A DNA stretch of 64,000 nt, from positions 880-64,879 of the IMG/VR virus record IMGVR_UViG_3300034111_001607; one strand, given 5' to 3'. The position numbers and the translations under genes are program-made. The notes beneath the pieces are model-generated. The model was not told the DNA's origin. It ran no database searches and saw nothing but the letters and a program-made list of their open reading frames with translations. This DNA comes from a virus (lineage: Duplodnaviria > Caudoviricetes). Shown in pieces: positions 546 through 59,544 of this stretch. Numbering within the stretch: position 1 is the first letter of the stretch; each line of letters opens with the position of its first letter.

Positions 546-1084
546 TAAATTCCCAAATAACCATTATTTAATTTTAGCACCCTTTTATAATCAAACACTG
601 GGCAAGTTTTACTTGAAACTTCACAATGTCCATGAAATGTTATCTTTCCATTATATGCTTTATTAATTGCAATACAAAGCATTTTAAGTGCTTCCATTGA
701 TTGGTTAGTGTACTCCTTTGAACCACTCACACAAATTGCAATAGAACCTGTATTATGCCCTTCCTGTGCGGCAGGAACATTTTCAATAGGTCTCCCATTT
801 TCAATTTGACCACTTTTACGAATAAAATAATGATAACCAACATCGTCAAACCCTCGTGCAATATGCCATTCACGCATTGTTTGAATATTATCGTGTGTTT
901 GATTATCTGAATCGGAGCAGTGAATAAATACTTTTGAGATTTTTCTTTGAGGTTTTTGAAAGCCCACATCGGCAGGGGTTTTATCAATAGGAACGCTATT
1001 GACTGGGACTTTTTCATTTTCCTGCCCTGCCGTTGCTTTGATAACTAACGCTTGATTATTATTTTGTTCTTTTTCATTTGTCAA
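545..1084 (-). CDS. Endolysin, N-acetylmuramoyl-L-alanine amidase (T7 lysozyme/Amidase_2 type)
   Basis: IHCS, WHIARGFDDVGYHY, GHN.GSIAIC, HGH and KTCP motifs. Confidence 0.92.
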   Translation of the reverse strand: MTNEKEQNNNQALVIKATAGQENEKVPVNSVPIDKTPADVGFQKPQRKISKVFIHCSDSDNQTHDNIQTMREWHIARGFDDVGYHYFIRKSGQIENGRPIENVPAAQEGHNTGSIAICVSGSKEYTNQSMEALKMLCIAINKAYNGKITFHGHCEVSSKTCPVFDYKRVLKLNNGYLGI

Positions 1085-1677
1085 GTCTTTTTTTTTTGAA
1101 TAATTTGCGAATAGCTTTGTGCTTCATCACTTTTTACAGCGAACCAATAACCAATCATAATAAAAATAATTGTTTCAAAATCGTGTAAAACAGCATTAAC
1201 CATATTAATGGTTTCAGGGTTTACATTTTTAAAAGCAATTGCACAAACACAACTAAGTTTAATAATTAAATAAATGATAAAACCAATAAATGTGAGAAGT
1301 GGTCTAGTTGCACCACGAAAAAAATTTACTGCATTTATTGCCTTTGAATTATAATCGTTTTCATAAAATGTATCATTTTGTTGTAAAAGTTTAAGATATT
1401 CATTTTTAGAATTTTGCTCTTCAATTCTTAATTGAATTTTTTCTTTTTCTAATTCGATTAAAAGATTAGCATTTGTTGCTGAAGATATTATTTTTTGCGT
1501 TTCCAATTCTGCATTTTTAATTTTTTCCTCGCTTACATTATTACTTCGTGCAATACAAATATCTTTAACAGTATCAAAACTTTTTGATAAAATATTTTTT
1601 AAAATTCCCAAACCAAAGCCACCAACGCCAGTTGTTAAAAGTTCAATTATATTCATACTATTTATAAAAAGTTTCAA
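1081..1677 (-). CDS. Holin, 3TM/GTA-holin-like (true start perhaps ATG 1656)
   Basis: RGATRPLLTF...TM...IGYWF signature; adjacent to the endolysin. Confidence 0.65.
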   Translation of the reverse strand: MKLFINSMNIIELLTTGVGGFGLGILKNILSKSFDTVKDICIARSNNVSEEKIKNAELETQKIISSATNANLLIELEKEKIQLRIEEQNSKNEYLKLLQQNDTFYENDYNSKAINAVNFFRGATRPLLTFIGFIIYLIIKLSCVCAIAFKNVNPETINMVNAVLHDFETIIFIMIGYWFAVKSDEAQSYSQIIQKKKT

Positions 1678-53901: not shown

Positions 53902-54363
53902 ATGAAACTCAAACAATGTAAATCTTGCAAGCAGGAATTTACACCCCATAAATACGCTATTTGTAAAACAAAGTGTAAAGATTGTATATTTGTGAAGCAC
54001 AAGCAAAGGTTGTGCATTTACGCCAAAAAACAAGCAGAAAAACCAAAAAAACCTCAATCTGGCTCCGCCCCAAAAATAGACAAAAAATGGATTGAACTTT
54101 CAAAAGCCATTAAAAAACGAGATGCAGGGCTTCCTTGTATATCTTGTGGAAAATTTATGCAAGAATATGAAATACAAGCAGGGCATTATATAGCAAGAGG
54201 AAAAAGTGTAAAGTTGAAATACGAACCGAGGAATATTCATGCACAGTGTTGGAACTGTAATAATAACCACCAAATGCAACAACAAATGCAAGAGGGGTTT
54301 ACAAAAGGCTTGATTGCACGGTATGGTTTGGAATATGTGGAGTGGTTGGAAAATAATAAATAA
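53902..54363 (+). CDS. ninG: NinG/Rap-like recombination endonuclease
   Basis: RDAGLPCISCG, QAGHYIARG, YEPRNIHAQCWNCN, LIARYG. Confidence 0.85.
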   Translation: MKLKQCKSCKQEFTPHKYAICKTKCKDCIFVKHKQRLCIYAKKQAEKPKKPQSGSAPKIDKKWIELSKAIKKRDAGLPCISCGKFMQEYEIQAGHYIARGKSVKLKYEPRNIHAQCWNCNNNHQMQQQMQEGFTKGLIARYGLEYVEWLENNK

Positions 54364-54366
54364 AAA

Positions 54367-54645
54367 ATGATAACAGAAAAACAAGTAGAGAATTTTTTTG
54401 ATATTCATTGTGTAGAATATGATTATAAACAATATCAATTTACATTTACACATAGAAAGAAAAGGAGAGCAATTGCTATCATTGCTTATTCAGCAAGTTG
54501 TTACACTCAAAGTGAAATAGAAAAATGTATAAAGAAAGCAATAAGATTATTTCATAGACAATATATTTTAAAAGAAAAATGTTATTTTATTAATTACCGT
54601 AATATTTCAAAAATTTTGCCGAAACCTCGTTTTATTCACTATTAA
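54367..54645 (+). CDS. Hypothetical protein
   Basis: Coupled ORF. Confidence 0.45.
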   Translation: MITEKQVENFFDIHCVEYDYKQYQFTFTHRKKRRAIAIIAYSASCYTQSEIEKCIKKAIRLFHRQYILKEKCYFINYRNISKILPKPRFIHY

Positions 54646-54650
54646 GTTAT

Positions 54651-54860
54651 GTGGGTTTTGTAATAAGCAAAGTATAGCCCCACTTACTCTAATTTAACAA
54701 AATGTTAAAACCCCAAAGGCAAAACCTAAGACTTCAATTAGGTAAAGCTATACAACCGCCTCCAGCCCGAGTTTCCACATTTCAAGAATGTGGCAGGTTA
54801 AGCCTACGCTTCCCACGGTTTGATTTACAATTAAGAAACCTTAAAATGCTAGCAATTGCG
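54651..54860 (-). ncRNA. Candidate multi-stem structured ncRNA
   Basis: ORF-free and GC-enriched; several helices whose G-U pairs work only on the minus strand. Confidence 0.5.
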
Positions 54861-54867
54861 ATATAAT

Positions 54868-54941
54868 ATTCACAGGCTGGATTTGAACCAGCGTCATTAA
54901 GTTATTACCCCTAATATGCTTCCAGACTACACCACTGTCAA
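54868..54941 (-). tRNA. Aberrant tRNA-like element (Met/Ile-like; pseudo-tRNA or decoy)
   Basis: Cloverleaf with T arm GCTGG-TTCAAAT-CCAGC and D arm GTGT-AGTCTGGAA-GCAT; 8-nt anticodon loop GGTAATAA; G3:G70 mismatch; no CCA. Confidence 0.65.
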
Positions 54942-54951
54942 TATCTTGGAT

Positions 54952-54980
54952 ATTATAAGATTCTACTTTTTTAATGTCAA
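54952..54980 (-). promoter_or_regulatory. Perfect sigma70 consensus promoter for the tRNA-like/ncRNA transcript
   Basis: TTGACA-N17-TATAAT. Confidence 0.85.
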
Positions 54981-54991
54981 CTTTTTTTTTC

Positions 54992-55019
54992 TTGACTTTT
55001 TAAAATTATAAAATATTCA
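54992..55019 (+). promoter_or_regulatory. Rightward promoter, back-to-back with the previous one
   Basis: TTGACT-N16-TATTCA. Confidence 0.45.
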
Positions 55020-55043
55020 TATTCATAATTCTTGCAAGGAATT

Positions 55044-55117
55044 GTACCATAATCAAAAGTTATGGTACACCCTCTTTTTCAATAGAGGTTAAAAAATTGG
55101 AAGGGTGTACTATTAAC
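55044..55117 (+). ncRNA. Candidate cis-regulatory pseudoknot/switch RNA, copy B
   Basis: Same core and architecture as 12208-12268. Confidence 0.6.
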
Positions 55118-55131
55118 TTATATAAACGATT

Positions 55132-59265: not shown

Positions 59266-59544
59266 ATGAAAAAAACTACAAATAAGAAAAAACTAAAAAA
59301 TAATGTTATAAATAAAAACTACGAAGCATTCGTAAAAATATTGCCACAACTTATACAATTATATTATGGTAAATTTGCTCTGTTACGAGATGAAAAAATA
59401 ATTAAAATTTTTGATACATTACCAGATGCTTACGAAACTGGGAAATTATTATATAATGATGGTTTATTTTCTGTACAAGAAATTAAACATAACACAGCTA
59501 CGAATCTTGGATTTTTTGCTAGCATTTTACATGCAAATGTATGA
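59266..59544 (+). CDS. DUF5678-like protein
   Basis: NYEAF...L...YYGKFALLRDEKII..FDT..DAY..G. Confidence 0.5.
   Translation: MKKTTNKKKLKNNVINKNYEAFVKILPQLIQLYYGKFALLRDEKIIKIFDTLPDAYETGKLLYNDGLFSVQEIKHNTATNLGFFASILHANV

Follow-up and report, generated by a model that had tools for sequence, protein, structure and literature searches.

A small conserved structured RNA module in the variable slot next to ninG of an uncultured lake phage

Introduction

Does the DNA between the ninG gene and the rightward operon of a lake phage encode a structured RNA and, if so, how far does it extend and what might it do? The question is raised by positions 54651-54860 of the stretch analysed here (the window, 64,000 nt, 31% GC), which constitutes nearly all of a 64,879-bp IMG/VR record (64.9 kb; IMGVR_UViG_3300034111_001607) with direct terminal repeats. 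A first-pass annotation made from the letters alone had described there, on the minus strand, a structured RNA of about 200 nt downstream of a tRNA-like element, and had proposed it as a new class of phage non-coding RNA. The phage recurs in many lake and freshwater metagenomes (24 runs listed, none of them RNA), and its terminase is ~24% identical to those of cultured phages.

Phage accessory hotspots harbor anti-defence and host-takeover functions, and their known cargo is almost entirely protein. A self-contained RNA cassette of ~108 nt, swapping places alongside tRNA and methyltransferase genes, would add an RNA-only type of cargo. In this work, we compared the locus with those of its ninG relatives, evaluated the strand, coding status, fold and conservation of the element, and searched for known families and further copies.

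Results

Organization of the locus

The following features were identified in the window:

53902-54363, plus strand: ninG/rap-like endonuclease gene (Pfam NinG, 3.5e-21; PHROG 171)
54367-54645, plus strand: 92-aa gene (ORF92), between ninG and the element
54671-54753, minus strand: D2, a 12-bp helix around two hairpins
54755-54862, minus strand: D1, conserved structured RNA core of ~108 nt (homologues, pairing counts and RNAalifold)
54867-54942, minus strand: unusual tRNA gene (ARAGORN and Rfam tRNA model)
54952-54980, minus strand: consensus sigma-70 promoter, TTGACA-17-TATAAT (12/12 positions match)
55043-55079, plus strand: hairpin with a T-run in the leader of the rightward operon (context only, outside the RNA)

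The ninG gene is the conserved anchor adjoining D1, which is convergently oriented to it. Beyond the leader, the rightward operon encodes a KilA-N-like protein, Ant and a replication initiator; by its orientation, the minus-strand element would be transcribed opposite to both flanking operons. As for translation signals in general, a Shine-Dalgarno-like motif was observed in only 5 of the 71 listed ORFs of the window, and many genes display instead TTAAnTTTTT-like motifs 8-20 nt upstream of the start.

The helices on which the ~200-nt proposal was built are all present here on the minus strand, namely AACCGU/GCGGUU, GUAGG/CCUGC, CCACAUU/AAUGUGG, ACCUAA/UUAGGU, UUUAACA/UGUUAAA and GGGUUUU...AAAACCC, together with the 12-bp helix GUAUAGCUUUAC/GUGGGGCUAUAC and its three G-U pairs. 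The region is likewise GC-rich for this genome, with a local maximum of 0.40 at 54700-54899 vs 0.31 in the window. Its description as free of ORFs was accurate in part: a 54-aa plus-strand ORF overlaps D1 at 54702-54866, and this ORF is not conserved.

D1 is a separable module in a hypervariable slot

NinG relatives at 67-91% identity, found on 10 metagenome contigs, were compared by BLAST and with a covariance model (R1), which detected D1 in 4 of the 12 sources searched: the window and the contigs L011, L013 and L014. The homologues, which comprise two distinct sequences with 69-82% identity, are located as follows:

L013, 2346-2457, minus strand: D1 homologue (covariance model R1 and BLAST)
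L014, minus strand: D1 homologue, identical to that of L013 in this region
L011, 3433-3545, minus strand: D1 homologue (covariance model R1 and BLAST)

In these three contigs, the counterpart of window positions 54755-54866 follows ninG directly, abutting or overlapping its stop codon, and the loci contain neither ORF92, nor the region of the 12-bp helix, nor a tRNA. A further arrangement was found in L006, where ninG is followed directly by the tRNA and its promoter; here, positions 54364-54862 are missing to within a 4-nt overlap, and the break coincides with the first base of P1, the closing helix of D1. Neither D1 nor the tRNA element was found after ninG in L007/L008, L009/L010, L012 and L015. 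The three arrangements across relatives thus indicate that ORF92 with D2, D1, and the tRNA are three separable modules of one hypervariable slot, which in relatives is also occupied by tRNA or methyltransferase genes. The location downstream of a tRNA, part of the original description, is not a trait of the family, as three homologous loci lack a tRNA and L006 has the tRNA without the RNA.

Two observations concern other occupants of the slot. In L009, a convergent gene for an EcoRI-type adenine methyltransferase (714-1598, minus strand; Pfam, 4.6e-124) lies in the slot, which fits an accessory or anti-restriction hotspot. In L013, the slot contains an ORF of 212 aa that matches no Pfam family; it has an NPPF motif and was judged by eye to be a methyltransferase.

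The boundaries of the conserved unit differ from those of the element as originally reported: it starts 2 nt outside the reported start and stops at 54755. The intergenic DNA around D1 is unalignable between the window, L011 and L013. In the window phage itself, the arrangement recurs letter for letter in contig pieces from 4 runs of 4 studies; the fragments that cover the element in these contigs are all identical to the window, so there is no population variation to exploit.

D1 is non-coding and strand-specific

The window copy of D1 has at least one stop in each of the six frames, and its homologues differ by 4-nt and 1-nt indels; D1 is therefore non-coding. With respect to strand, the pairs of the full 34-pair model described below comprise 12 G-U and 0 A-C cells, which establishes the minus strand as the RNA sense. 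The three pairings of D1 sequences are 82, 69 and 84% identical over 108 columns, above the 67, 58 and 68% of the third codon positions of ninG in the same pairings; the neighbouring coding DNA overall is 76, 72 and 78% identical, and D1 is not much more conserved than this DNA. Variable columns are distributed unevenly in D1, affecting 12/19 columns in hairpin loops, 8/29 in the junction and 13/60 in paired positions, and all 13 variable paired columns retain pairing. The junction strands CAAACCGUGGG and GGAARCUCGGGCUGG are highly conserved.

Fold of D1

The fold was evaluated on an alignment (A4) of the three distinct D1 sequences, with 108 columns, and comprises the following elements:

54862-54858/54759-54755, minus strand: P1, closing helix
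54854/54760, minus strand: single pair between P1 and P2
54852-54848/54766-54762, minus strand: P2
54840-54836/54826-54822, minus strand: P3 hairpin
54818-54816/54769-54767, minus strand: invariant CCG/CGG helix
54806-54803/54797-54794, minus strand: hairpin A
54793-54787/54781-54775, minus strand: hairpin B
54844-54841/54785-54782, minus strand: possible pseudoknot of the hairpin-B loop with the junction

RNAalifold independently yielded the same helices as the manual reading, and hairpins A and B are equated with the two hairpins of the first-pass annotation. A core of 26 pairs with P1 at 54862-54858 had 78/78 cells paired and 4 compensatory pairs and was matched by 3/500 shuffles, with slid controls 30-46% paired. 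When the CCG/CGG helix, the 54854/54760 pair and the possible pseudoknot were added, the resulting 34-pair model had 102/102 cells paired, 4 compensatory pairs and 6 one-sided changes, and was matched by 8/500 shuffles (slid controls, 30-51%); all these counts are to be read considering that related sequences can outscore shuffles even without structure. The hairpins GUAGG/CCUGC and CCACAUU/AAUGUGG show one compensatory change apiece in the homologues. Compensatory changes on one strand across homologues, as expected of a conserved structured non-coding RNA, were thus found in D1 among three distinct sequences, and the covariation is thin because there are just three.

The closing helix as originally drawn, AACCGU/GCGGUU, fared less well than the distal P1: this version (25 pairs) had 97.3% of cells paired and 3 compensatory pairs, and was matched by 21/500 shuffles vs 3/500. 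Furthermore, L011 has a G-to-A change in the 3' strand, for which a C-to-U change in the distal 5' strand compensates; this favours the distal P1. The proximal AACCGU, which does not vary, could alternatively pair with the 3' strand in the way first drawn.

Folding energy did not distinguish the proposed ~200-nt RNA from shuffled controls, as the 231-nt minus-strand sequence had a z of -0.65 and 50/200 shuffles folded at least as well. Its junction half had a z of -1.51 and its 12-bp-helix half of -2.11, and the plus strand folded with better z values than the minus strand (-1.75, -3.50 and -3.06). Folding energy against shuffles had been named in the first-pass annotation as a refuting test, and the element does not pass it. 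The minimum free energy z values of the three homologous RNAs of 112-117 nt were weak (-0.93, -1.65 and -1.18).

With the integration of these findings, D1 is a discrete, mobile, strand-specific and structurally conserved non-coding module.

D2 and ORF92

The length of about 200 nt has to be revised: the conserved RNA spans ~108 nt, and the 3' half corresponds to a separate module that goes with the 92-aa gene. D2 (54671-54753) was absent from all 10 ninG-relative loci and from every D1 homologue, and no homologue was found in the DNA searched, leaving the window as its only occurrence; the same applies to the proposed GGGUUUU/AAAACCC pseudoknot and the 12-bp-helix half, which have no homologue at all. 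For D2, the minus strand folds with a z of -2.11 and the plus strand with one of -3.50. Helices as long as its 12-bp helix are common in the window: with G-U pairs allowed and a span of up to 124 nt, those of at least 12 bp number 62 on the minus and 70 on the plus strand.

D2 starts 26 nt past the stop of ORF92, and the insertion made up of ORF92 and D2 fills precisely the interval from ninG to the 3' end of P1, so that, compared with L013, the ORF92 block enters at the D1/D2 boundary (54754/54755). From this arrangement, D2 appears to be separate from the conserved RNA and to have arrived with the 92-aa gene. ORF92 itself has three clusters of homologues at 80-91% identity with conserved length, which indicates a real gene; it matches no Pfam or PHROG family, is absent from L006, L011, L013 and L014, and its AlphaFold model is poor (mean pLDDT, 51.7). 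Its product was observed to be a conserved small basic protein.

On the minus strand, D2 is followed by the U-rich tail UUUGCUUAUU (54670-54661). In the relatives, P1/P2 is itself followed by a U-rich tail, the sequence after P1 being UUAUUUAUUUUUUU in L013 and UUAUUUAUUAU in L011, and the window copy of D1 lacks such a tail. D2 is probably the 3' end or terminator of a minus-strand transcript in the window phage, where it would replace the lost 3' tail as the transcript end.

tRNA, promoters and leader

The tRNA gene (54867-54942, minus strand) ends 4 nt upstream of the D1 core and is retained in L006, from which D1 is missing. ARAGORN reads it as tRNA-Ile(aat), with anticodon AAU, and the Rfam tRNA model aligns with it at 38.2 bits when the anticodon loop is allowed one additional base (8 nt) and the acceptor one mismatch. 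A G-G mismatch was noted in the acceptor stem, and CCA is not encoded. In the L006 tRNA (552-627, minus strand), two adjacent bases of the 5' acceptor strand differ and full pairing is restored (by eye).

Perfect 12/12 sigma-70 sites occur twice in the window vs 0.1 expected in shuffles, and sites with at least 11 matches occur 17 times vs 6.35. Near-consensus sites with a shared spacer precede other operons of the window, which makes the tRNA promoter credible; the same promoter stands before the tRNA in L006 (by eye). The promoter scan found none for the RNA in L013 or L011. The promoter family, seen at 54980, 53244 and 32967 (minus strand) and at ~54995 and 53290 (plus strand), shares the spacer TTGACAtTtaAAAAAGTA...TATAaT and lies back to back with opposite-strand TTGACT promoters (AAAGTCAAG motif).

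The plus-strand terminator-like hairpin of the rightward leader is also present in L013 and L011, with a different stem sequence. In the leaders (55000-55131, plus strand; L013, 2700-2805; L011, 3860-3960), overlapping hairpins ending in a T-run were observed directly after the promoter, possibly an attenuator or antitermination site. Between D1 and the rightward promoter, L013 (2610-2720) and L011 (3640-3830) carry iteron arrays of TGCAATGCTA...CTTGTATAAC units in 3-4 copies, in opposite orientation in the two contigs; this array is not present in the window (29 motif matches vs 21 expected). Elsewhere in the window, the gene at 59266-59544 contains, on the opposite DNA strand, a 14-nt copy of the P2 region (TTGCTAGCATTTTA; ~59516-59529, plus strand). 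This copy has a partly palindromic sequence and is probably due to chance.

Searches for known families and further copies

Consistent with the original observation that the element could not be matched to a number of known RNA types, Rfam 15 at the gathering score found only the tRNA in the window, and ARAGORN called nothing but the tRNA at 54867-54942, with no tRNA or tmRNA in 54651-54862 even at relaxed thresholds and no tRNA in L011, L013 or L014. The Rfam families covered include riboswitches, small ribozymes, 6S, SRP, RNase P, c4-type RNAs, GOLLD and ROOL. At E values up to 10, Rfam gave only weak, unconvincing matches at the three D1 loci. L013 D1 matched DUF3800-VII (RF02967) at 16.2 bits (E 0.82 in 146 nt; gathering score, 36.2), and the window and L011 copies had no match to this family at E up to 10. 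D2 matched DUF3800-VIII (RF03075) at 25.0 bits (E 0.049 in 801 nt; gathering score, 40.2), in an alignment with a 14-nt insertion and several non-pairs. A DUF3800 gene (PF12686) was found neither in the 64.9-kb record at E up to 1 nor with Pfam among the 8 neighbouring ORFs scanned in L007, L009, L011 and L013, and a Ro/TROVE gene is absent from the phage. The terminator scan, which accepts loops of 3-8 nt only, lists no terminator on the minus strand at the places of D1.

No close relatives were recovered from IMG/VR by means of the 151-aa neighbour, NinG, the terminase or the NinG alignment, and an RNR search returned one phage at 42% identity, which has neither the element nor the tRNA. DNA pattern scans of viral and genome contigs yielded no matches, or chance matches in GC-rich DNA only; on the 120 genome and 7 viral loci obtained by these scans, the best score of the covariance model was 15.1 bits. 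The same model matched nothing in a sample of 151 Pseudomonadota genomes, nor a second copy in the window with filters off, and BLAST against phage and plasmid records gave nothing, or AT-rich chance matches of 24-27 nt. With regard to targets, no conserved complementarity of at least 9 nt was found between D1 and other parts of the three loci, where 9-mers were scattered and unshared, and the duplex scan returned self-antisense only; these searches yielded neither a partner protein nor a target for D1. A search of the full-text literature returned nothing on an RNA next to ninG.

Discussion

The best overall explanation for these results, to which we assign a probability of about 0.5, is that D1 is a folded RNA gene in the slot after ninG that acts in trans. 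That D1 is a genuine functional structured RNA we consider likely, and the more specific proposal of a trans-acting binder is offered tentatively, at odds well below even. According to this explanation, the 5' and 3' ends of D1 would pair as P1 and P2, two helices stacked on either side of an asymmetric internal loop, and would close a multi-helix junction with P3, the short CCG/CGG helix and the adjacent hairpins A and B. The promoter at 54980-54952 may drive a single transcript with the tRNA, then D1, then D2, from which the 3'-end processing of the tRNA would free D1, 4 nt upstream of P1; the transcript would end at the D2 hairpin and U-rich tail in the window phage and, in the relatives, in the U-rich tail directly after P1. 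The product would be a stable folded RNA, most likely operating in trans, whose conserved junction may bind a protein or a small ligand, with a function of the host-takeover or anti-defence accessory type rather than long antisense pairing. Transcription, processing, 3' ends and function in trans are what we infer from the layout and conservation of the locus.

Several other explanations have to be weighed. D1 might have no function as a free RNA and serve instead, where the ninG operon and the leftward small-RNA unit converge, as an elaborate intrinsic terminator or a stabiliser of 3' ends, perhaps in both directions. The way in which P1 and P2 close the whole structure just before a U-rich tail speaks for this, as do the abutment or overlap with the ninG stop codon and the flanking tracts in the relatives (AAAAAA upstream and UUAUUUAUUUUUUU downstream in L013; AAAA and UUAUUUAUUAU in L011). 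Yet the minus-strand terminator scan is empty at the places of D1, the window copy has neither an A-tract nor a U-tract, the plus-strand version would be weaker, with 12 G-U cells turned into A-C, and a terminator does not need the invariant unpaired junction strands (21/29 junction columns are invariant); on balance, we regard a terminator as unlikely. A cis-antisense regulator, fully complementary to the 3' untranslated end of the ninG-operon transcript and triggering or blocking its decay in the way of lambda OOP RNA on cII, is improbable in our judgement. D1 is convergent with ninG and abuts it in 4 loci, and no plus-strand terminator was found before 55043, so the transcript of the ninG operon would contain D1 antisense; however, pure antisense requires neither a conserved fold nor compensatory changes, and in the window the ORF92 block puts 390 nt between D1 and ninG. 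To the notion that D1 has no function, its conservation being recent shared ancestry of intergenic DNA and its pairing a matter of luck in three sequences, we give very little credence: while the distinct sequences are only three, the z values are weak, and 3-21 of 500 shuffles reach the observed pairing depending on the model, the surrounding intergenic DNA is unalignable between the same contigs, the variable paired columns stay paired in 13 of 13 cases, and D1 exceeds the third codon positions of ninG in identity.

The remaining explanations involve D2. A single RNA of ~200 nt, in which D1 and D2 are domains of one functional molecule of a new class, would account for their adjacency in the window, where they would be co-transcribed, for the identical arrangement in contig pieces from 4 runs of 4 studies and for the z of D2 (-2.11). 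This is nevertheless very improbable, considering that every D1 homologue lacks D2, that, compared with L013, the ORF92 block has gone in right at the D1/D2 boundary (54754/54755), and that 12-bp helices are common in the window and the 231-nt fold has a z of -0.65. Finally, D1 and D2 might be very distant relatives of the orphan motifs DUF3800-VII and DUF3800-VIII, which are often terminator-ended. L013 D1 aligns end to end with RF02967 (16.2 bits), sharing the closing stem, the bulge, CGCCNG...CNGGGGGC and CUCGGG, and D2 aligns with RF03075 (25 bits, E 0.049), two weak matches to one series of motifs being odd. Nonetheless, both scores are far under gathering (36.2 and 40.2), at E up to 10 only one of the three D1 sequences matches, L013 D1 does not form the innermost RF02967 helix, and no DUF3800 gene was found in the phage or the 8 neighbouring ORFs scanned; such a relationship is doubtful in the extreme.

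Taking D1 as a folded RNA gene acting in trans, a bolder version may be formulated, in which D1 founds a new class of phage accessory RNA, released from a tRNA co-transcript, with an invariant junction that neutralises a host factor (e.g., a defence or tRNA-targeting enzyme) or performs catalysis. This version is quite unlikely; if true, a bare RNA cassette moving between phages without a protein gene would constitute an RNA-only moron, a new kind of element. As to the new class initially proposed, the conserved structured non-coding RNA holds, but the term class is generous for 4 loci and 3 distinct sequences. D1 is rare (4 loci), belongs to an uncultured lake phage and comes with no functional lead; it is also a small, tractable candidate for probing, cleavage and pull-down assays, with a native promoter of perfect sigma-70 consensus.

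Among known systems, the P1/P7 c4 and P4 CI immunity RNAs are small, stable, folded RNAs processed from a longer transcript and encoded next to the ant region. The phage studied here has an Ant gene in the divergent operon; however, D1 is oriented opposite to the ant operon, matches no Rfam family of this kind at E up to 10, and displays no conserved complementarity to the operon leader. The OOP RNA of phage lambda is a short transcript convergent with a phage gene, cII, ending at or over its 3' end and acting by antisense pairing; OOP is a plain antisense RNA, in contrast to D1 with its conserved multi-helix fold and conserved unpaired strands. The Y-RNA-like YrlA, of ~100 nt and sometimes phage-encoded, has a structured module closed by the pairing of its 5' and 3' ends in a long, bulged stem; unlike the YrlA systems, the phage has no Ro/TROVE gene, and no T-loop-like motif or Rfam match was seen in D1. 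GOLLD and ROOL are, like D1, phage-borne structured RNAs, sometimes located beside tRNAs, and are ~5-8 times larger than D1; moreover, D1 has no Rfam match to them and its tRNA adjacency is not conserved.

Both DUF3800-VII (RF02967) and D1 are small orphan motifs in which a closing stem and an asymmetric bulge are combined with a 3' strand rich in G and a U-rich tail. Conversely, the inner helix of RF02967 is not formed in D1, which has three extra hairpins, and for DUF3800-VII and -VIII against D1 and D2 there is no DUF3800 gene nearby and the 16.2 and 25 bits are below gathering. In PMC5737381, which gives ROOL as 581 nt, the DUF3800 motifs are assigned no function and several have Rho-independent terminators after them, and DUF3800 is tied to an RNase H2-like fold in type VII retrons in PMC7736814. 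The resemblance may thus serve as a lead, as distinct from membership. Taken together, D1 is a rare, small structured phage RNA in an accessory-gene hotspot, a new motif of a familiar kind, the orphan phage sRNA.
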